From a virus: 48,016 nucleotides of DNA. The notes beneath the pieces were generated by a model that saw nothing but the letters and a program-made list of their open reading frames with translations, made no database searches and was not told the DNA's origin. Below, in pieces: positions 9,524 to 48,016 of this stretch (position 1 is its first letter; the number at the start of each line of letters is the position of its first letter). The translations under genes and the position numbers were made by a program. Where the stretch lies: positions 1-48,016 of the IMG/VR virus record IMGVR_UViG_3300044492_000085; one strand, 5' to 3'.

Positions 9524-11616
9524 TGGCCGACACCCTGGAAAGCCTGGTGCAGTGGGCCACCGAGAACCAGCACCTGAAAGGCACGCCTGAGTTCCAAGCC
9601 AAGACCGATCAATACAAGCAGCTGCGGGACGGCGCCGTGCCAGCGCCGCCGGCCGGCACCGCGGCCTCGGCACCGACTGCGGAACCGACACCAGCTCCGG
9701 CCCCGGCTGCAGCTCCGGCCGCGCCAGGCGATCCCTATTCCTTCTACAACACCACGGCGCGGATCGGCGCCGGCGCCGCCACCGGCTATCCCGACTTAGC
9801 GATCGCGCTCGGCAATGCCGGATCCCGGGCCGGGATCTTTCCAGAGACCAAGATTCCCTACCTCGGGCCGATGGCGTTGGAAGCGGTCGGCGGCCAGCCG
9901 CTGCCGGCCGATGCCAGCACCACCCGGCAGCTGCTTGAGGCTGGCGCTAGCGCCCTGCTCGGCGGCGGCGGCTCGGCGATCGCCCGCGGCATTGCCGCGG
10001 CGCCGACCGGCCTGCAGGCGATCCGCGCCGCGCTGACCCGGTTCGGCACCAGCACCGTGGCGCCGACCGTCGCCTCGCACTACGGCGCCGACGTCGGCGA
10101 GAAGATCGGCCGGGCCGCCGGCGTTGACCCGGAGACCAGCGCGCTATTCGGCGCGATCCTCGGTGGCGGCGGTGCCAGTGCCGCCGGGCAGGCGCCGCGC
10201 AGCTACATTGACTGGAAGTACCGCGGCATGGGCCGGCCGGAAGCACCGCAGATTGCGCAGGCGGCGCGGGTCGAGGGCGTCCAATTGCCGGCCAGCGCGC
10301 TCGGCAACGACACCATACGGATGCGGGAGAACGCCAACGCCAACCGTTTCGGCGCGTCTACCTTCACCCAGAATCGCCGCATGACCGCCCGCGACCAGAC
10401 CGGCGGCGCCTGGGACGACATGGCCGACAACAGAGGTTCGCTTAACCCGACGCCGGCGCCGGCCGACATCGGCGCCGCGGTTGCCGACATCGCCCGGACC
10501 AACGCCGACGACCTGCGGACGCGGGTGGCGGCGCCGCAGGAGGCCCTGGCGCAGACAGTCGGTCCGGGTAGTCCAGCGGAATGGCTGCCCGTACTCAGCG
10601 CGCTGCGGCAAGCGTCACATGAAACCTACGCCGGTACGGCAGGGCCGTTGGAAGCACGCATTCGGGCGATTGAAAGCCGCCTGCCGGTCGATGCCCAAGG
10701 CAACATCATCGACACCCGTGGCACCTACAACCAGGTCAAGGACTTCCGGTCCGACACCAGGATCAAGGGCGAAGGCTACGACCCGATCCCGAGCCGCTAT
10801 GCCAGCCAAGCCGAGGATGCCGCCACCGGAGTGATGCGCGACACCGCCGACCAACAGGGCGTGCCACCGCAGACCTTCGACCGCGTCCAGGAACGCTACG
10901 CCGCGGCGATGGGCGAGGGCGGGCCGCATGAACAGCTCACTGCCGTTGCCGATAACGCCCGCACCAATGCCGCGTCCGGCTACAACTACCTCAAGCAGGG
11001 TGAGCAGGATCCGACCCGGCTGCGCATGCTGGAAGCCACCAGCCAGCCGGTCGCACGCGGGCAGGGGCCGTCGCCGCTCGACCAGACTTTCGGTGACTAC
11101 CTGCGCCTGCTCGGCAACCAGACTATCAACAGCCCGAACCAGGGCGCACCGGGGCCGCGGCAGCTTGCCACCCGGGTCCGGGGCATAGCGGACGAATCGC
11201 TGGATGTGATAGCAGGCCCGCAACGCGACCGGGTCGACCGCCTGGCACTGATCGCCCAGGCGCTGAACCAGCCCACCCGCCAAGGAGGGCTTGGCCAGAC
11301 CATGGGCAATCTCAGTCAAGGCGTCGTCGGCGGTTTGACTGCCGGCGAGGTCGGCGGCCAGATCGGCAGCGCGGCCAGCGCCGTGACCGGCGTACCCGGC
11401 GGCAACACCGCCGGGCGGATCGCCGGCTACTCGCTCGGGCCGATCCGGCGGGCGATCGGCGGCCGGATGATGCAGTCACCGACGGCGCTCAATGCGCTGG
11501 AGGGCCAGCCTTTCCAACGCGACTACACCATCGCTGACTTAGCGGCAGCGATCACCGCGGCCTCGGCAGCGGCATCCGGGCCGGGCGGACCACCACAGGC
11601 GGGGCCACGACGCTAA
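9523..11616 (+). CDS. Putative internal virion protein (T7 gp15-size class)
   Basis: About 697 aa from the ATG at 9523 (TGATG overlap; the track ORF begins with GTG at 9520). Gly/Ala-rich segments. Call rests on position and size. Confidence 0.45.
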   Translation: MADTLESLVQWATENQHLKGTPEFQAKTDQYKQLRDGAVPAPPAGTAASAPTAEPTPAPAPAAAPAAPGDPYSFYNTTARIGAGAATGYPDLAIALGNAGSRAGIFPETKIPYLGPMALEAVGGQPLPADASTTRQLLEAGASALLGGGGSAIARGIAAAPTGLQAIRAALTRFGTSTVAPTVASHYGADVGEKIGRAAGVDPETSALFGAILGGGGASAAGQAPRSYIDWKYRGMGRPEAPQIAQAARVEGVQLPASALGNDTIRMRENANANRFGASTFTQNRRMTARDQTGGAWDDMADNRGSLNPTPAPADIGAAVADIARTNADDLRTRVAAPQEALAQTVGPGSPAEWLPVLSALRQASHETYAGTAGPLEARIRAIESRLPVDAQGNIIDTRGTYNQVKDFRSDTRIKGEGYDPIPSRYASQAEDAATGVMRDTADQQGVPPQTFDRVQERYAAAMGEGGPHEQLTAVADNARTNAASGYNYLKQGEQDPTRLRMLEATSQPVARGQGPSPLDQTFGDYLRLLGNQTINSPNQGAPGPRQLATRVRGIADESLDVIAGPQRDRVDRLALIAQALNQPTRQGGLGQTMGNLSQGVVGGLTAGEVGGQIGSAASAVTGVPGGNTAGRIAGYSLGPIRRAIGGRMMQSPTALNALEGQPFQRDYTIADLAAAITAASAAASGPGGPPQAGPRR

Positions 11617-14576
11617 TGGCCTACATGGACGAACAGGCGCTCGAGCGCGAGAAGAGCAAGCAGACGATGATCGCCGGCAAGCAGCCGCTGCTCGGCGATG
11701 ATACTTCGCGTGCGCTGCACGCGCTCGGCGTCAACCTGGGTGTGGTGCCACCCGGCACACAGCCCAGCCAAATGACCCAATTCCTGGAGCGCATACTCAA
11801 GGGGCCGAGCGCGAAAGACATCCACGTAGACGAAACCAAGCCGCTGCAGGTGCAGCCGCTGGTCGGCCAGGTCACCTCGTCGCTGCAGCGGCCGATGCAA
11901 AGCGACGACAGCATCGGCGAGACAATCTCAGGCGGCTTCGGCGCCGCCAAGGACAAGGCGCTGCAGCAGAAGCTGCAGGCGCAGCAGCAGGTGAAGCCGC
12001 CGACACCGCCGGCCATGCCGGAGCGACCGCCCGGACCGGGCGCTAATAGGGCCAGGCTCAGGGCGCCGGTCGAGCGATCGGCCGAAGGCCCCGGCTACCA
12101 GGCCGACCTCGCCTTCCTGCAGGAACGCGGCGGCCACCATAGCGTGCTGAAGGACGGCAAGATCGTCGACGCGCCGCTGACCGCGGCCGGCAGCTACCAG
12201 GGAATTGATCCCGAGCTAGCCGCCCGGCTGCGCGCAGCTGGCGAGGCGTTCGAAAAGGAGAACCCCGGCAAGCGGGCGCAGTACGGCGAGTTCTCCCGCG
12301 GCGCCGACGTGCAGCAGATCTACCGCGACAAGTACGAGGCCGGCACCGGCGGCATCGCTGCCAAGGCCGGCCACTCCCAGCACCAGAAGGGTAGCGCCGG
12401 CGACCTGCCCGACAGCCCGTTCCGGCAGTGGCTGAACGCCGGCAACCAGGACAAGTTTGGCGTCCACTTCCCGGTCAAGGGTGACGCGCCGCACGTCCAG
12501 ATCAACCCCGGCTACAAAGGGCAGCCGTTCTCGGCTCCGGCAGCATCCGCGACATCCGCGACATCCGCGACACCGGCGGCTGGGCCGAACGGTCAAGTGT
12601 CACTGCACGCTGGCGAGCATCCAGGCATGGACGTGCTGACCAACAAGTCGATCCCGGCCGGCGAGCGGTTCAACAATCCGTTCAACATGTGGCACGACGG
12701 CTACGCCGGCGCGCACGGCGGCAAGCCCGGGATCCAGATCACCCAGCACGACACCCCAGCGGTCTACGCCAACAAGGAAGCCGGCGCCGCGGCGGCAATC
12801 CAAAAGATGGCGCAGTCGCCGCTGTACTCCGGCAAGACCATGCAGGACATGATCGGTACCTGGGTTGGCCACGGCACCAGCTACGCGCCGCGGATCGAGG
12901 AATGGACCGGGATCTCGCGCAACACCAGGATCACACCGGAGTTCCTAGCCTCGCCGGACGGACTGAAGTTCCTCAAGGCGATGGCGCGATACGAGACTGA
13001 TTCCTCCAAACCGTACAGCCTGACCGACGCGCAGTGGGAGAAGGCCCGCGACGTCGCGTTAAACAATCCTCCCACCCTGCCGAACTCGATCGACAGCCGG
13101 CCGGCTGGCGCCAAGCTGCGGGCGGCTACCGCCGCGGCCAAACCACCGGCTGCTGCTACCCCAGCTCCTGCACAGGCTCCCGCCCAGCCCCCGCAAGCTG
13201 AAGCGAAGCCTGCGCCGGCTGCGGCTCCGGCGGCGGCACCCACGCCAAGTGCGCCGCCGCCGGGTGCTGCTGCGATCGCGGCGACCGAGGCGGAAGCATT
13301 GCTACCGGAAGACCCAGCGGCGCCGGCCGAACCCGCAGCTACCCCAGCTCCTGTGGCCGCAGCACCTCTCCCCGCTGCGCCCGCGGTGGCAGCGGCGCCG
13401 GCCAAACCTCCGGCGGCGCCGCCCCCTGCGCCGCCGCCGGTCGCCAAGCCGGCGCCGCCAGCCGCGCCGCCGGTCAACCCGGCGCACGCGCTGCTCGACA
13501 CCAAGGTGATCGAGCTGGTCAAGCGCGGCGACCCCAGCAAGGTCAGTCAGGTGCCGGACTTCATCGGCAACAAGACCCTACGCGAGGCATTGAACACACC
13601 CTTTGTCGGCAGCCAGATCGCCGCTGGTGTGCAGCCCTACCTGCCGAAGATGGGCATCACCCAGCAGCAGTTCGACGCCGCGGTGAAGGAAGGCGCGCCG
13701 AAGCCGGCGGCAGTCGGCAAGCGCAGCAACCTCGACCTCGGCACCTCGGGGGCCACCGACTTCAGCGCCAGCAAGCGGATGGCGCCGGCGCCCGCGGTGG
13801 ATCCCAACGCCCCGACGCTCGACCCGCTGCAGCAGAAGCCCGTGCAGAACGAAGACGGCTCAATCTCGACCGTGCGAACGATCGGCGTGGAGGACCAAGG
13901 CAAGGAGGTCAACATTCCTACCGTGCCGGCCGAGGGCGGCCGCGTAATGTCTGACGCTGACGCGCGCCAGCGTTACGTAGAAACCGGCAACCATCTCGGC
14001 AAATTCGACACGGTCGAGCAGGCCGGCGCCGCAGCGGAGAAGCTGCACCAGGACGAGGCGGCACGCATCAGCGAGCAGCCGAAGGGCCAGCAAGGCGCGA
14101 TGACGCCGGAGATCGCCCAGGCCCTGACCGACGTCTACAAAGACCAAAGCCGGGTTGCGCCGGATCCGAGCCCACCACCGGCTGATGCCATGCCGGTGCT
14201 TCCGGCGCAGCCTGCCACGCCCGCCGGTGGCGCCGCCGGCGGGCTGTCTCTTGCGCCGCCGGGATTAAACTCGATCCCGACCGGCGCGGTGGCACCGGGC
14301 GCGCCCGGCAGCCAGGGCGGCAGCATAGCCTTGGCGGGTGTGCTGCCGCCCATTGAGAACAGCACCTACTCGAGCCCGCTGCTCAACCAGACGGCCGCAT
14401 CTGGCTCGACGATCGGCGGCCTGTCGCCGATCTCACCGCAGGTTCTCGGTGGCTGGGGTTGGGGTGGCGGCAACATCGGCGCCGGCCTCGACTGGGGTGG
14501 CGGCGGTGGTGGTGGCTTCGACCTCGGCGGTGGTGGCGGCTTTTCTATGCCGTCATTTGGGACTGGCGGTTGGTAA
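11616..14576 (+). CDS. Large ejection / internal virion protein with a peptidase M15 (LAS-type) cell-wall hydrolase domain
   Basis: 986 aa with a TAATG overlap. The motifs EFSRGADVQQIYRD, GHSQHQKGSAGDL (SxHxxGxAxD) and GDAPHVQ match the VanY/M15 zinc-peptidase signature. This is followed by an NNPFNMW...TMQDMIGTW domain, an Ala/Pro linker of about 125 aa (13098-13481) and a Gly/Trp-rich C-terminus. Confidence 0.7.
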   Translation: MAYMDEQALEREKSKQTMIAGKQPLLGDDTSRALHALGVNLGVVPPGTQPSQMTQFLERILKGPSAKDIHVDETKPLQVQPLVGQVTSSLQRPMQSDDSIGETISGGFGAAKDKALQQKLQAQQQVKPPTPPAMPERPPGPGANRARLRAPVERSAEGPGYQADLAFLQERGGHHSVLKDGKIVDAPLTAAGSYQGIDPELAARLRAAGEAFEKENPGKRAQYGEFSRGADVQQIYRDKYEAGTGGIAAKAGHSQHQKGSAGDLPDSPFRQWLNAGNQDKFGVHFPVKGDAPHVQINPGYKGQPFSAPAASATSATSATPAAGPNGQVSLHAGEHPGMDVLTNKSIPAGERFNNPFNMWHDGYAGAHGGKPGIQITQHDTPAVYANKEAGAAAAIQKMAQSPLYSGKTMQDMIGTWVGHGTSYAPRIEEWTGISRNTRITPEFLASPDGLKFLKAMARYETDSSKPYSLTDAQWEKARDVALNNPPTLPNSIDSRPAGAKLRAATAAAKPPAAATPAPAQAPAQPPQAEAKPAPAAAPAAAPTPSAPPPGAAAIAATEAEALLPEDPAAPAEPAATPAPVAAAPLPAAPAVAAAPAKPPAAPPPAPPPVAKPAPPAAPPVNPAHALLDTKVIELVKRGDPSKVSQVPDFIGNKTLREALNTPFVGSQIAAGVQPYLPKMGITQQQFDAAVKEGAPKPAAVGKRSNLDLGTSGATDFSASKRMAPAPAVDPNAPTLDPLQQKPVQNEDGSISTVRTIGVEDQGKEVNIPTVPAEGGRVMSDADARQRYVETGNHLGKFDTVEQAGAAAEKLHQDEAARISEQPKGQQGAMTPEIAQALTDVYKDQSRVAPDPSPPPADAMPVLPAQPATPAGGAAGGLSLAPPGLNSIPTGAVAPGAPGSQGGSIALAGVLPPIENSTYSSPLLNQTAASGSTIGGLSPISPQVLGGWGWGGGNIGAGLDWGGGGGGGFDLGGGGGFSMPSFGTGGW

Positions 14577-14815
14577 TTAACGGTGACCAGACACCACCGT
14601 GCCGGTGCTCTGCATCGGCACGCACCGTGTGACGTAGCCGAGGTCAGTCGTCCGCGATGCCTCGAGGCACGCCTCTTTGCTTGGGTATCCGGTGATTGCC
14701 CAGACCGATCCTATTAACAGAACCCACAGCATCATTTAGACCGCGCAAAATTTTTTTGCATTTTTGAAGCTTGGCCCGGCGACGTTTCACATGCACGCCG
14801 CCGGAGCCAGCAAAG

Positions 14816-15490
14816 TCAGACCGCCAACAGTCGCGCCTTACGGCGCCGGTGGAGTCCGACCAAGCCAAACATTCCTGCAACCAAGGCAGGCAGTCCGGTA
14901 CCGACCGCCGGCAGCGGCACCGCCGCAACCTGCGGCGCCACGTCGATACGGAAATGCTCGAAATCAGTAATCGAGCCACCCGCAACCCGAAGGTCAACAT
15001 CCCAGATCCGCTCGCCATCGATAGCGCGAAGATCGAACCCGTTCTGGCCGTTCTTCAGAACGCTGCTGAAGAAGAAGTTCATGAAACTGCCGTCTGCTTC
15101 CAAGGCCGTCGCACGAATGAACAGGGTACCTGTTCCCACGATGGAGAAGATGTCCCGCGTGGTCGTAAGCTGCGTGAGGTTATTGCGATCGAAGACCGTG
15201 ATATCAAGCTCGCTGGTATTGACGATCTTGATGTCGTTACCGTTGGCTGCTCCAGAGAACAGACCAGCCAATATGCCGCCGTCAGGGTTGAAGGCCGAGC
15301 GATCCAAGAACCTTACGACCTCATCGTTCTGACCGTTGAGGCGGCCAAGGATCAGGCCAGAGTTGGCGATGTTAGTGAATATCACGTTATTGCCGGTGCC
15401 ACCGATCCCGGTCTCGTCGAGCAAGATGGTGGCCTTAGCAGGCACAGTGAGTAGAAGCGCCGCCACGGCGGCGCCGAGCAGTTTATTCAT
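14816..15490 (-). CDS. Secreted protein with a C-terminal VPLPA/PEP-CTERM (exosortase) sorting signal
   Basis: Signal peptide MNKLLGAAVAALLLTVPAKA. The C-terminus, AAVPLPAVGTGLPALVAGMFGLVGLHRRRKARLLAV, has the motif, hydrophobic helix and basic cluster. The antisense 227-aa ORF looks like Arg-rich junk. Confidence 0.75.
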   Translation of the reverse strand: MNKLLGAAVAALLLTVPAKATILLDETGIGGTGNNVIFTNIANSGLILGRLNGQNDEVVRFLDRSAFNPDGGILAGLFSGAANGNDIKIVNTSELDITVFDRNNLTQLTTTRDIFSIVGTGTLFIRATALEADGSFMNFFFSSVLKNGQNGFDLRAIDGERIWDVDLRVAGGSITDFEHFRIDVAPQVAAVPLPAVGTGLPALVAGMFGLVGLHRRRKARLLAV

Positions 15491-15681
15491 TGGGGTGGTT
15501 CCTCTGTTGGGTGTTCGTCGACAGGTTCAACATTAACAGTCTTCTTGACCTTCGCCTTCGACCTATACGCTTTATTTTTATTGGCCTGCGGATCGGTTTT
15601 CTCCGCGATCTGATTGCGGACACGATAAACCTTCGCATCCTCCATCATCAGCTCGCGCAGCTGGGTTTCCGGGTCGGCCAT
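15487..15681 (-). CDS. Small charged protein, first gene of the leftward switch transcript
   Basis: 64 aa with an ATGA overlap to the downstream VPLPA-CTERM gene. No Shine-Dalgarno sequence; a -10-like TATAGT ends 8 nt before the ATG, so the mRNA may be leaderless. Confidence 0.5.
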   Translation of the reverse strand: MADPETQLRELMMEDAKVYRVRNQIAEKTDPQANKNKAYRSKAKVKKTVNVEPVDEHPTEEPPQ

Positions 15682-15696
15682 TGTACCCGACTATAA

Positions 15697-15711
15697 TTCA
15701 ACTATTTTGAG
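15697..15711. promoter_or_regulatory. Operator-like dyad O1 (TTCAACTATTTTGAG)
   Basis: Reverse complement is CTCAAAATAGTTGAA, one mismatch from the perfect dyad at 31756-31770. It lies in the spacer of a leftward TTGTAT-N16-TATAGT promoter-like element. Confidence 0.5.
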
Positions 15712-15726
15712 ATACAAGCTTGCACC

Positions 15727-15741
15727 CTCAAAAATGTTGAG
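15727..15741. promoter_or_regulatory. Operator-like dyad O2 (CTCAAAAATGTTGAG)
   Basis: Perfect CTCAA-N5-TTGAG inverted repeat, 30 bp from O1 centre to centre. It lies within the spacer of a rightward TTGCAC-N17-TAGGAC element just upstream of the Cro-like gene. Confidence 0.5.
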
Positions 15742-15755
15742 ATAGGACTGATTCC

Positions 15756-15986
15756 ATGACGACCCTACGAACGACATCTGAAATCATCGACGCGCTCGGC
15801 GGCATCGAAGCGATGGCTGAGCTAACCGGAACTTCGGAGAACGGCGTCTACAACTGGCGAGCGGGAAAGCAATTCCCGGCAGACACTTACCGGCTACTCA
15901 AAGATGAACTGAAAGAGATCGGCCACGATGCACCTGACCATCTATGGCCTATGCGAACAGCTCCGAAAAAGGCTGCGAAAAGGTAA
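15756..15986 (+). CDS. Cro-like / YdaS-like helix-turn-helix regulator
   Basis: 76 aa. IIDALGGIEAMAELTGTSENGVYNWRAGKQFP fits the small Cro/YdaS HTH pattern. It sits next to the divergent promoter region that carries the dyads. Confidence 0.6.
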   Translation: MTTLRTTSEIIDALGGIEAMAELTGTSENGVYNWRAGKQFPADTYRLLKDELKEIGHDAPDHLWPMRTAPKKAAKR

Positions 15987-46976: not shown

Positions 46977-48014
46977 ATGGCAGATGACGACAAGCACCTA
47001 CCCGCCGAGGTAGTGCCGTCGATCGAACAGGTACCTTCGCCAGGTACGGACGCCGGCGATACCGGCGGTAGTCTGCTGGACGCCATCCAGAGCGCAGTGC
47101 CTGAGCTGCGACAGGATGACGACTACTCAGACACCGACGGCTCAAAGGGGGATCCGCCATCCCAAGTCGCAAGGAAGTCCGAACGCGAACCCGAATTGTC
47201 GGAAGAGCCGACACCTGACGAACTAGCCAAGCTTTCCAAAGCCGCGCAACGGCGCATCAAGAAGCTCAATTCGCAACGACAGAAGTTGTCGGGCGAGGTG
47301 CAGCGACTGAAGGCGCTCGAGCCGGACGCTGATATGGCGCGCAAGGTCACCGATTATCTTCGCAAGAACGATATCGGTCAGGACGATTTCCTGTTTGGCC
47401 TTGAGCTGATGGCGGCGATGCGCCGCGGTGACTTCGTGAAGTTCTATGAGGGGACGCGCCCCTACATGAAACTCTGCGAGGAATACCTCGGCATCTCGCT
47501 GCCCCCTGATTTGCAGCAGTCAGTGCAGCAGGGGCATATGACGACACAGGCCGCGGCCATGTACTCGCGAGAGCGCATGGACAAGGCGATGGCGCAGAAC
47601 AATGCGGTCCGACAACAGGCCGCACTGCAACAGCACCAGCAGGTGTCGCAGAATCAGCAAGAGCAACTGCGCAAGGAAGTCTTGGCAGAGAAGGTGGCGA
47701 TAGCCGTCAATAACTGGGAACTGGGAATAGTGCGATCGGACCCTCGCTATGCGGCGAAAAAAGCCGCTGTTCAGTCCACGATGATGGCACTCGTCCAGGA
47801 GTACGGTCCACCCAAGTCGCCCGAGAACGGCATCCAACTCGCCCAAGAGGCGTATCGCCGTGTCAACGAGCAGTACAAGGCTTGGTCCCAACCCCAGCGA
47901 ATGCCCACATCGCGCGTCCCGAGCAGCACCGGAAGAACCGCTGGTGTGGCACCCGAGCCTACGTCACTGCTGGAAGCAGTCAGATTTGCTCGCGAGGGAG
48001 CGCCGCGCCTCTAA
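46977..48014 (+). CDS. Scaffolding protein (assigned by position)
   Basis: 345 aa with an acidic N-terminus and Gln-rich coiled-coil segments. It lies between the portal and capsid genes, and its last 41 codons lie in the terminal redundancy. Confidence 0.55.
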   Translation: MADDDKHLPAEVVPSIEQVPSPGTDAGDTGGSLLDAIQSAVPELRQDDDYSDTDGSKGDPPSQVARKSEREPELSEEPTPDELAKLSKAAQRRIKKLNSQRQKLSGEVQRLKALEPDADMARKVTDYLRKNDIGQDDFLFGLELMAAMRRGDFVKFYEGTRPYMKLCEEYLGISLPPDLQQSVQQGHMTTQAAAMYSRERMDKAMAQNNAVRQQAALQQHQQVSQNQQEQLRKEVLAEKVAIAVNNWELGIVRSDPRYAAKKAAVQSTMMALVQEYGPPKSPENGIQLAQEAYRRVNEQYKAWSQPQRMPTSRVPSSTGRTAGVAPEPTSLLEAVRFAREGAPRL

Positions 48015-48016
48015 TT
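47890..48016. repeat. Terminal redundancy, copy B (identical to 1-127)
   Basis: Exact 127-nt match to the window start. It contains the last 41 codons and stop codon of CDS 46977-48014. Confidence 0.97.

Follow-up and report, generated by a model that had tools for sequence, protein, structure and literature searches.

The window analysed here is the whole of IMG/VR virus record IMGVR_UViG_3300044492_000085 (48,016 nt), and we focused on one of its genes, which encodes a 224-aa secreted protein with a three-part C-terminal tail. Tripartite C-terminal sorting signals and the exosortases that go with them are an already known kind of system. We observed that bases 1-127 of the window were repeated at 47890-48016, and it is therefore a complete, circularly closed phage genome of 47,889 bp. 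When the ends were joined, the head gene at its start became contiguous with the terminase and portal genes at its end. The gene is thus phage-encoded, as had been claimed in an earlier reading of the sequence (here the original prediction). The gene and the parts of its product, which we refer to as the cargo protein and whose tail falls in a class that we call type A, are as follows.

14816..15490, minus strand: cargo gene for the 224-aa secreted protein (stop codon 14816-14818), with a signal peptide, a beta-sandwich domain and a type-A tail
15431..15490, minus strand: signal peptide, residues 1-20 MNKLLGAAVAALLLTVPAKA, with cleavage by signal peptidase I (SPase I) predicted after A20 (a rule-based call)
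14933..15430, minus strand: mature all-beta domain, residues 21-186, with the invariant motifs GGTGNNV and FEHFRIDV
14888..14920, minus strand: type-A signature motif, residues 191-201 (VPLPAVGTGLP), with V191 and P192 invariant; matches the type-A consensus AVPGPIVGAGLPGL
14852..14893, minus strand: hydrophobic transmembrane (TM) segment of the tail, residues 200-213, read from the sequence and lying inside the model helix 200-223
14831..14851, minus strand: basic cluster HRRRKAR, residues 214-220, the cytoplasmic anchor of the tripartite signal, read from the sequence

The open reading frame (ORF) at 14816-15490 on the minus strand was present, and its product was exactly the 224-aa sequence first quoted. 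The N-terminus had K3, a hydrophobic core of 13 residues and then A18-K-A20, followed by T21. When 59 homologues were aligned, 54 columns proved invariant; A20 was the same in all of them and A18 was conserved in at least 90%. This conservation looks like that of an SPase I site, and it agrees with the predicted Sec signal peptide. An AlphaFold2 model of the 224-aa protein (mean pLDDT 80) had a helix at residues 2-13, beta strands over 21-184 (pLDDT mostly 80-95) and a C-terminal helix at 200-223; between the signal peptide and the tail the model was all-beta, and no TM segment was seen. The only disordered segment in the model was residues 190-199, right over VPLPAVGTGL. The three-part tail architecture was also borne out, with the motif at 191-201, a run of some 14-17 hydrophobic residues (at about 199/200-213, with the TM segment placed at 200-213) and the basic cluster at 214-220 of 224. 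This Arg-rich cluster was kept in all tail types of the family. The composition of the cargo protein (T 8.4%, N 9.0%, C 0%, K 1.2%) fits the cargo of PEP-CTERM signals, which has been reported to be Thr/Asn-rich, with no Cys and few Lys (PMC1569441).

Three other identities were considered for the protein and rejected. It is not a u-spanin, as it has no lipobox Cys and has an SPase I site instead. A virion protein was ruled out by the signal peptide and the membrane anchor, and a GlyGly-CTERM/rhombosortase signal by the lack of both a model match and a GG motif.

The original prediction had placed the tail in the VPLPA/PEP-CTERM class, and the comparison with curated models did not uphold this. 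The whole protein had no match in NCBIfam, Pfam or PHROGs. The tail alone scored 7.5 bits (E = 4) on the VPLPA-CTERM model TIGR03370, where the cut-off is 25.35, and tail-only scans gave sub-threshold LAVTG, MYXO-CTERM and VPLPA matches and nothing more. Neither the whole protein nor the tail matched PEP-CTERM (TIGR02595 with its cut-off of 16 bits; PF07589 at its gathering score). As a positive control, the relative P0005 scored 28.0 and 31.3 bits on TIGR03370, and the orthologues P0034, P0119 and P0037 passed the PEP-CTERM model at 22-29.5 bits. On a type-A model built from 142 unrelated (non-family) tails, the window tail reached 42.8 bits, a score attained by none of 1000 shuffled window tails (maximum 6.5). 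The PEP-CTERM and VPLPA-CTERM members of the family gave 3.0-6.3 bits on this same model, and the true VPLPA tails gave 6.3 and -10. After VPLPA, the window tail continues with VGTGLPAL, which is the type-A pattern, and not with the G-x-W-L-L-x-x-G-L of true VPLPA-CTERM. Since the TIGR03370 score lies below the cut-off, the profile comparisons indicate that the window tail is not VPLPA-CTERM, that its VPLPA pentapeptide is coincidental and that the tail is of another class, which no curated model covers. The original prediction was thus right in part: its core idea of an exosortase cargo stood, and more strongly than before, since relatives of the protein pass the cut-offs for PEP-CTERM, PEPxxWA-CTERM and VPLPA-CTERM, whereas the window's own tail is of another class.

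We searched the type-A tail profile against 1.84 billion representative proteins, in clusters at 50% identity. At E ≤ 1e-3 there were 5,200 matching clusters, of which 312 reached E ≤ 1e-10. The matches lay at the extreme C-terminus of proteins of 45-449 aa (the 150 matches listed were at the very end or within a few residues of it, with few exceptions). The mature domain of the cargo family was absent from 148 of the 150 best matches, and most of these proteins begin with signal peptides. An unrelated protein of 449 aa (P0124) carried the exact motif variant of the window, AAVPLPAVGTGLPSL. When ten unrelated type-A proteins were examined, none had a Pfam domain and nine had neither a Pfam nor an NCBIfam domain. 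The tenth was a full-length cistern family PEP-CTERM protein (NF033947, 125.7 vs 60), but with a type-A tail. A cluster look-up of ten type-A proteins returned only metagenomic entries named 'hypothetical protein', none of them with a taxonomy. These searches suggest that type A is a modular sorting signal and not a peculiarity of one family. A tblastn search of plasmids with a canonical type-A tail gave no match, probably through low-complexity masking. We also noted that JGI calls some type-A proteins 'LPXTG-motif cell wall-anchored protein' (P0277, P0285, P0344, P0350, P0375). This is likely to be a systematic mis-annotation, as the tripartite layout is common to both.

Within the cargo family itself the tail was not constant. 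About two-thirds of the members, the window protein included, had the type-A form, VP[GLI]P-x2-GAG[LI]PGL followed by a TM segment and RRRR, for which no curated model gave a match at E ≤ 10. About one-third had PEPxxWA-CTERM (NF035944) tails above the cut-off; this type-B form, VPE..TWAMMI.GF…RK, scored 45.4 vs 35 for PEPxxWA-CTERM and 29.5 vs 16 for PEP-CTERM. The tail of P0005, VPLPAGVWLFGSGIAGLGLL…RRRK, is VPLPA-CTERM at 28-31 vs 25.35, and yet the mature domain of this protein is 97% identical to that of the window protein. In the same way, P0047 (type A) and P0069 (PEP-CTERM) matched at 188 of 192 positions from the signal peptide up to '…RIDV.P.V.AVP' and were unrelated beyond it. On a tree of the 161 distinct mature domains, the most parsimonious history has at least 24 tail switches, whereas shuffled labels need 56 on average. 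By these alignments the tail exchange is both recent and precise. A few proteins had hybrid tails (P0068, P0082, P0085, P0100; loci L035-L038), in which a type-A-like VPGPVAG element is directly followed by a full VPEPATWAM… PEP-CTERM signal, making an unusually long C-terminal extension. These may be recombination intermediates or signals of dual specificity.

Some phages carried one or two extra secreted-protein genes, unrelated in sequence, after the family gene. Among the extra genes were the following.

L019: 10684-11280
L064: 12021-12602
L083: 11297-11884
L071: 5505-6308 and 6772-7608
L077: 2443-3138
L080: 10387-11130

The extra gene had the same tail type as the family gene in all cases (10/10, from nine phage genotypes). 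Type A went with type A in L019/20, L042, L071 (two genes), L072, L077 and L080-82, and type B went with type B in L050, L064/65 and L083/84. Since these second and third secreted genes have matching tails, some phages would seem to bear multi-gene cassettes of sorted cargo. One B-tailed second cargo was an FxDxF family PEP-CTERM protein (NF038126, 78.4 vs 50), and its A-tailed counterpart in another phage was 44-47% identical. As FxDxF and cistern members both occur with type-A tails, three independent cargo families (the window's, FxDxF and cistern) alternate between PEP-CTERM and type A.

The cargo family is overwhelmingly phage-borne. It had 256 homologues of uniform length. Relatives were found on 130 viral contigs in IMG/VR, with intact and length-conserved copies, against only two distant cellular relatives (39% and 28% identity) among 185,579 species genomes (one genome per species). 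The two were in an uncultured alphaproteobacterial metagenome-assembled genome (MAG) and in a Bradyrhizobium MAG. Both had canonical VPEPxTWAMM tails, and the Bradyrhizobium copy adjoins another PEP-CTERM protein. The neighbours of the alphaproteobacterial copy (L005, 11924-15399) are a primase/AAA-like gene and split integrase-like ORFs, and for this reason it may lie at the edge of an integrated element. A tblastn search of 50,697 GenBank phages with the protein gave no match.

The genomic contexts of the family were phage throughout and of at least three backbone kinds. The contexts of the window's own lineage have the Cro-like, helicase, polymerase and 986-aa genes in common, while many contigs (>50 loci) have neighbours without any similarity to those of the window. 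The third backbone kind consists of ~85-kb phages with base-hypermodification genes (L002, L064). These two phages are unrelated to that of the window and encode HMUDK_hel, HMUDK_HMUD1, ADDT and Pam3_Gp34-like proteins. In L007 the cargo gene is 94% identical and at the equivalent place. The similarity of the cargo gene did not follow that of its flanks: L031 and L039 have a cargo of 62-63% identity between flanks of 86-89%, and in L010-L012 the cargo is 86% identical and the flanks are unrelated. Across related phages the gene was found in varied positions and orientations, co-directional with the early genes or elsewhere. Because of this discordance, the gene seems to behave as a mobile accessory (moron) cassette.

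Cellular type-A genes were often found in polysaccharide loci, together with Wzz/kinase, Wzm/Wzt, glycosyltransferases, TPR proteins and an Asn-synthase-type amidotransferase. Directly beside the type-A genes of L088 and L091 is the gene for a protein of ~270-285 aa with ~7 TM segments. The genes for this putative enzyme and its homologues lie at the following positions.

L088: 10443-11300
L091: 1361-2164
L093, L094 and L095: 10001 to ~10860
L096: 12001-12789

The 7-TM protein had 1,379 homologues, and ~25 of the 120 listed carry the JGI name 'exosortase/archaeosortase family protein'. Residues C192 (in PACSS), N235, R238 and H253 were invariant in 28 sequences. Exosortases and archaeosortases (PF09721, TIGR04178) are marked by several membrane spans and a conserved Cys/Arg(/His) signature at the active site, and the clade has both. 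A small single-TM gene lies directly after the enzyme gene. In three further loci, retrieved via the enzyme alone so that the test was unbiased, a type-A gene ended 75-375 bp upstream in 3/3, a second type-A gene was nearby in 2/3, and a type-B tail was present in 0/3.

The enzyme had its closest named relative (40% identity) on the Microvirga ossetica V5/3m megaplasmid (NZ_CP016617.1, L096). Two small Gly-rich ORFs at 11177-11452 (minus strand) and 11544-11897 (plus strand) of this locus stand immediately upstream of the enzyme homologue, and their ends, …GVPGPIAGAGLPFLL.AGGYVL.RRYR, are of the VPGPIAGAGLP type. PLSDB has no annotation for the stretch with these tails (VPGPIAGAGLPFLL..RRYR). 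Microvirga ossetica was the only cultured organism in which the type-A signal and the enzyme appeared paired. Taken together, a type-A gene was beside the enzyme gene in 6/7 cellular loci (L088, L091, L093, L094, L095 and L096, and not L097). The conserved locus comprises a TPR protein, the type-A cargo, the enzyme, the small TM protein, Wzz/kinase, a NusG-like protein, sugar enzymes, an amidotransferase and Poly_export, and a closely similar set of exopolysaccharide (EPS) genes is found in the PEP-CTERM/EpsH loci of Haft 2006 (PMC1569441). The 7-TM clade is, by these sequence comparisons, a candidate new exosortase subtype that goes mostly unrecognised by Pfam. A PDB sequence search with the enzyme profile gave nothing useful.

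We think it probable that the phage cargo, through its type-A tail, enters an exosortase-type sorting pathway of the host, that the tail is exchanged to match the host, and that the outcome is a remodelling of the surface or EPS. In the mechanism that we propose, the beta-sandwich protein would be exported by Sec and lose its signal peptide, and the type-A tail, as a PEP-CTERM-like signal of a previously uncatalogued class, would hold it in the inner membrane of the host (presumably a Hyphomicrobiales-like alphaproteobacterium). A divergent exosortase-family membrane enzyme encoded in the host EPS locus would recognise VPxP..GAGLPGL at the periplasmic face and cleave the anchor. The mature domain could then be released by the enzyme, or attached by it on the surface of the cell or within the EPS. 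The phage would thereby hijack a host surface-sorting pathway for a mobile cargo cassette, and related phages would refit a near-constant mature domain with one tail or another (type A, PEP-CTERM/PEPxxWA or VPLPA-CTERM) to suit the sorting system of the host. The likely pay-off would be a remodelled surface or EPS of the infected cell, e.g. receptor masking, superinfection exclusion or aggregation. What the data show directly is the protein architecture, its carriage by phages, the exchange of the tail as a module, the agreement of tail types within one phage and the proximity of type-A cargo to the enzyme gene; processing by this enzyme, a location at the surface and the biological role are inferred. 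The wider claim is that type A is a new and abundant exosortase-class signal served by an unrecognised exosortase clade in EPS loci of soil Alphaproteobacteria, and that tailed phages carry 1-3 cargo proteins and swap the 35-residue tail by recombination for new hosts; this we hold to be evenly poised between true and false.

Several observations weigh against this proposal. The window protein itself matches no curated sorting-signal model, and its motif V-P-L-P, like the type-A consensus V-P-G-P, is without the Glu of Pro-Glu-Pro, the near-invariant motif with which PEP-CTERM tails start (PMC1569441). The GC content of A-tail and B-tail phage contigs was not different (p = 0.31), and there is therefore no independent sign that they have different hosts. 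The enzyme clade is marginal as an exosortase: PF09721 was found on 4 of the 120 homologues listed, the L088 and L091 enzymes have no Pfam match on record, and PGAP calls the homologue in Rhizobium sp. WL3 (WP_147884957.1) a 'hypothetical protein'. This homologue (L097) is 34% identical and lies in an EPS locus, with no type-A tail nearby. The adjacency evidence amounts to just seven loci, at the level of the neighbourhood. The fold searches gave nothing but weak matches, to jelly rolls and folds like those of carbohydrate-binding modules (CBM), with a TM-score ≤ ~0.5; a PDB sequence search with the cargo-family profile found nothing useful. The nearest cultured phages, as judged by the large terminase (TerL) and DNA polymerase, are too remote to name a host. 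TerL was 50% identical to that of a Microcystis phage and 42% to that of Rhizobium phage RHph_N65, and the other matches in this comparison were at 37%, to Nostoc, Microcystis and Octadecabacter phages.

The protein might instead be a plain bitopic inner-membrane protein that needs no sorting enzyme and has a periplasmic role, e.g. blocking the entry of superinfecting DNA in the manner of HK97 gp15 or P22 SieA-type proteins. A signal peptide, a C-terminal TM segment and a positive-inside cluster suffice for anchoring, the window tail matches no curated sorting signal, and several type-A contexts (L087, L089, L090, L092) had no exosortase-like gene within 10 kb. However, a plain anchor does not need a near-invariant motif of 13 residues (VPGPxxGAGLPGL) common to ~5,200 unrelated clusters. 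Nor would it swap precisely with bona fide PEP-CTERM and VPLPA-CTERM tails on cargo that is 97-99% identical, agree among different cargo genes of one phage, or directly precede an exosortase-family gene in 6/7 loci. We consider this explanation unlikely.

A second explanation accepts type A as a genuine signal and assigns it to machinery other than an exosortase (rhombosortase-like, CPBP/myxosortase-like or other), with the 7-TM protein in an EPS polymerase- or ligase-like role. Most of the 7-TM homologues indeed have no PF09721, one is 'hypothetical' to PGAP, and type A is without the PEP glutamate. Furthermore, unrelated protease families can serve tripartite signals (10.1101/2023.06.07.544157). 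On the other hand, many of the homologues bear the JGI exosortase/archaeosortase label and four bear PF09721, and a Cys, an N..R pair and a His are invariant in the family. The small single-TM gene that comes next (cf. EpsI after EpsH), the EPS locus of the PrsT/Wzz/amidotransferase type, and the specific alternation of three cargo families between type A and PEP-CTERM also point to an exosortase. We therefore regard a different machinery as quite unlikely.

The remaining explanations bear on the surroundings of the cargo gene, whose features are listed here.

15487..15681, minus strand: charged 64-aa ORF, ATGA-coupled to the cargo gene; no family match
14769..14811, minus strand: GC-rich hairpin directly past the cargo stop, a possible terminator or RNA-stability element, without an adjacent U-tract
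14577..14735, minus strand: 52-aa ORF with a hydrophobic N-terminal segment, downstream of the cargo gene; may or may not belong to the unit; no family match
15682..15755, no strand assigned: divergent intergenic region of 74 bp between the cassette and the Cro-like gene, with presumed promoters
15756..15986, plus strand: small DNA-binding protein of the Cro or helix-turn-helix (HTH) kind, first of the early rightward genes; all matches sub-threshold

The two-gene arrangement that had been described was found in the sequence, with the cargo ATG overlapping the TGA of the 64-aa ORF in an ATGA junction. The 64-aa ORF was 54-84% identical across 11 loci, the unrelated backbones L010-L012 among them, and the ATGA junction was kept in 9/11. 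This partner accompanies the cargo gene in just one subclade (the 11 loci). The minus-strand region 14730-14825, which holds the hairpin, folded at -36.1 kcal/mol (z = -2.9, with 0/200 shuffles equally stable). The hairpin was not called in the terminator scan, and no canonical terminator was found for the cassette. The 52-aa ORF was 96-100% identical in L007, L008, L009 and L039, including cases in which the cargo gene next to it was just 62% identical, and for this reason the cargo cassette seems to diverge or be exchanged much faster than its immediate flank.

In the promoter scan, only a sigma-70-like site at 15707-15735 (plus strand) passed, and it was not above the shuffle expectation. 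No minus-strand promoter for the cassette passed; by eye, TTGTAT-16-TATAGT can be seen on the minus strand just before the ATG of the 64-aa ORF, below the threshold. The Cro-like protein scored 35.4 vs 38 on NF046037 (carph-isopro) and 19.6 vs 30.2 on P22_Cro, and also hit phrog_8008 and phrog_409; weak YdaS and HTH_17 matches were seen as well. The antisense position of the cargo gene, between the end of the 986-aa virion gene (14576) and the Cro/HTH-like gene at 15756-15986, was as predicted. The cargo gene had also been described as less GC-rich than its flanks. This was true with respect to the structural genes (0.579 vs 0.66-0.69) and not with respect to the adjacent early region (0.588); the genome has 0.619, and the gene is no outlier, since 20% of windows of the same size have an equal or lower GC content. 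As regards the hallmarks of a moron, the cassette thus has a strong hairpin without a U-tract, no minus-strand promoter in the scan, no canonical terminator and an ordinary GC content.

The rest of the genome was assigned with PHROGs and Pfam. On the virion side there were a major head protein, the large terminase, the portal, a tail fibre and baseplate-like proteins, and on the replication side a family-A DNA polymerase, an SNF2 helicase, a PD-(D/E)XK exonuclease, Prim-Pol, a primase and a DNA methyltransferase. The scan of ~40 window ORFs brought up no integrase, no CI-type repressor and no lysis gene. Repressor-like matches were limited to the small Cro/HTH-like protein and one weak HTH_31. 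The 986-aa protein of the last virion gene (11616-14576, plus strand) matched no family and contains very long stretches of low complexity, some rich in Ala/Pro and others in Gly. Its counterpart in L003 is 1,276 aa long and has an Amidase_2 domain, which suggests that the product may be an ejected or tail-associated cell-wall hydrolase.

Spelled out in specific terms, the original prediction would make the cargo protein a VPLPA-CTERM protein (TIGR03370) and an immunity or exclusion gene expressed in the lysogen from the leftward promoter of a lambdoid switch, with XrtD as the processing enzyme. The pentapeptide VPLPA does stand at residues 191-195, P0005 passes TIGR03370 with a mature domain 97% identical to that of the window protein, and the cargo gene is divergent from a Cro/HTH-like gene. 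Against this stand the score of 7.5 bits on TIGR03370 beside 42.8 on the type-A model, the failure of any minus-strand promoter to pass the scan, and the related phages that have the gene co-directional with the early genes or elsewhere. The lambdoid framing likewise finds no support: the ORF scan brought up neither an integrase nor a CI-like repressor, the closest cultured phages are distant, and the phage has a replisome of its own (Prim-Pol, primase, DNA polymerase A and helicase). This explanation is very unlikely. That the gene has no part in infection, being either host DNA picked up by the phage or an artefact of the assembly, for which its GC content slightly under the genome mean and its distant cousins in the alphaproteobacterial and Bradyrhizobium MAGs might speak, is effectively refuted by its conservation in more than 100 phage contigs (130 contigs with intact, length-conserved copies, 54 invariant columns), by the circular closure of a genome in which phage genes flank the locus, and by the 94% identical copy at the equivalent place in L007.

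The proposal of an exosortase-type pathway would have several consequences if true. A large signal class (~5,200 clusters) and its candidate enzyme would join the catalogue of prokaryotic C-terminal sorting, where its members are now named 'hypothetical' or wrongly LPXTG. Phages would encode substrates of an exosortase-type pathway, which would be the first case of phage exploitation of such surface sorting. We found no paper describing phage-encoded exosortase cargo, in agreement with the original prediction, and no paper containing the type-A motif in the searchable literature. The signal class, the enzyme clade, the phage carriage and the tail swapping were likewise not found in NCBIfam 20, Pfam or the searchable literature. 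The pair P0047/P0069 is a natural domain-swap experiment, and with near-identical cargo on alternative tails the specificity of signal and enzyme is directly testable. The tail type would also be a marker of the host sorting machinery and a host-prediction feature for uncultured soil phages. A usable host prediction, as had been suggested, is feasible because the tail class of the window is genetically linked to an exosortase-family gene. More broadly, the system would point to phages that manipulate the surface and EPS of soil Alphaproteobacteria (exclusion, aggregation, biofilm).

The comparison with known systems can begin with those that are related by analogy. The T5 lipoprotein Llp masks FhuA, and the lambdoid Cor and the SieA-type proteins are exclusion proteins. 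The cargo protein resembles these in being a small accessory envelope protein that is exported, encoded at a module boundary and mobile, and it might plausibly have a role in exclusion or progeny protection. The analogy would be one of function only, as there is no kinship in sequence or fold, and these proteins use lipoprotein or plain membrane targeting and not an exosortase-type signal. The only mention of PEP-CTERM that we found in a virus-like mobile element concerns a PEP-CTERM domain in a conserved gene of the Dehalococcoides IME1 virus-like elements (10.64898/2026.09.15.751708). Host phylum, element and protein are all different there, and neither tail swapping nor an enzyme link nor a tailed-phage context is described.

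The 'choice-of-anchor' families of NCBIfam are built on one secreted domain with different C-terminal anchors. The cargo family is similar in that a conserved secreted domain carries several alternative C-terminal signals. It differs in that the alternation here is between phage copies that are 97-99% identical and tracks the phage, and no choice-of-anchor model was matched. The PEPxxWA-CTERM (NF035944), FxDxF (NF038126) and cistern (NF033947) families are parallel cases of the same cargo with an alternative tail, though the mature domain of the window protein falls outside all of these families, and the tail it carries is of another type than PEPxxWA. The cognate exosortase of VPLPA-CTERM is XrtD. 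The window tail shares with that class (TIGR03370) the VPLPA opening and the tripartite layout, and P0005 is a true member (31.3 vs 25.35), whereas the window tail continues with VGTGLPAL after VPLPA and gives 7.5 bits.

The closest parallel is the PEP-CTERM/exosortase system (EpsH, XrtA; PMC1569441; TIGR02595, PF07589, PF09721). The window and type-A tails open with VP[GLI]P and not VPEP, continue with GAGLPGL, and fail TIGR02595 and PF07589. The type-A enzyme clade is mostly missed by Pfam and PGAP, and the cargo of the window is encoded by a phage. In other respects the two are alike. Both have a signal peptide and a proline motif followed by a TM segment and an Arg cluster, on Thr/Asn-rich, Cys-poor cargo that is mostly without known domains, with one signal on many unrelated proteins. 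In both, the signal is linked to an exosortase-family protein in an EPS locus, and the window protein has orthologues with genuine PEP-CTERM tails.

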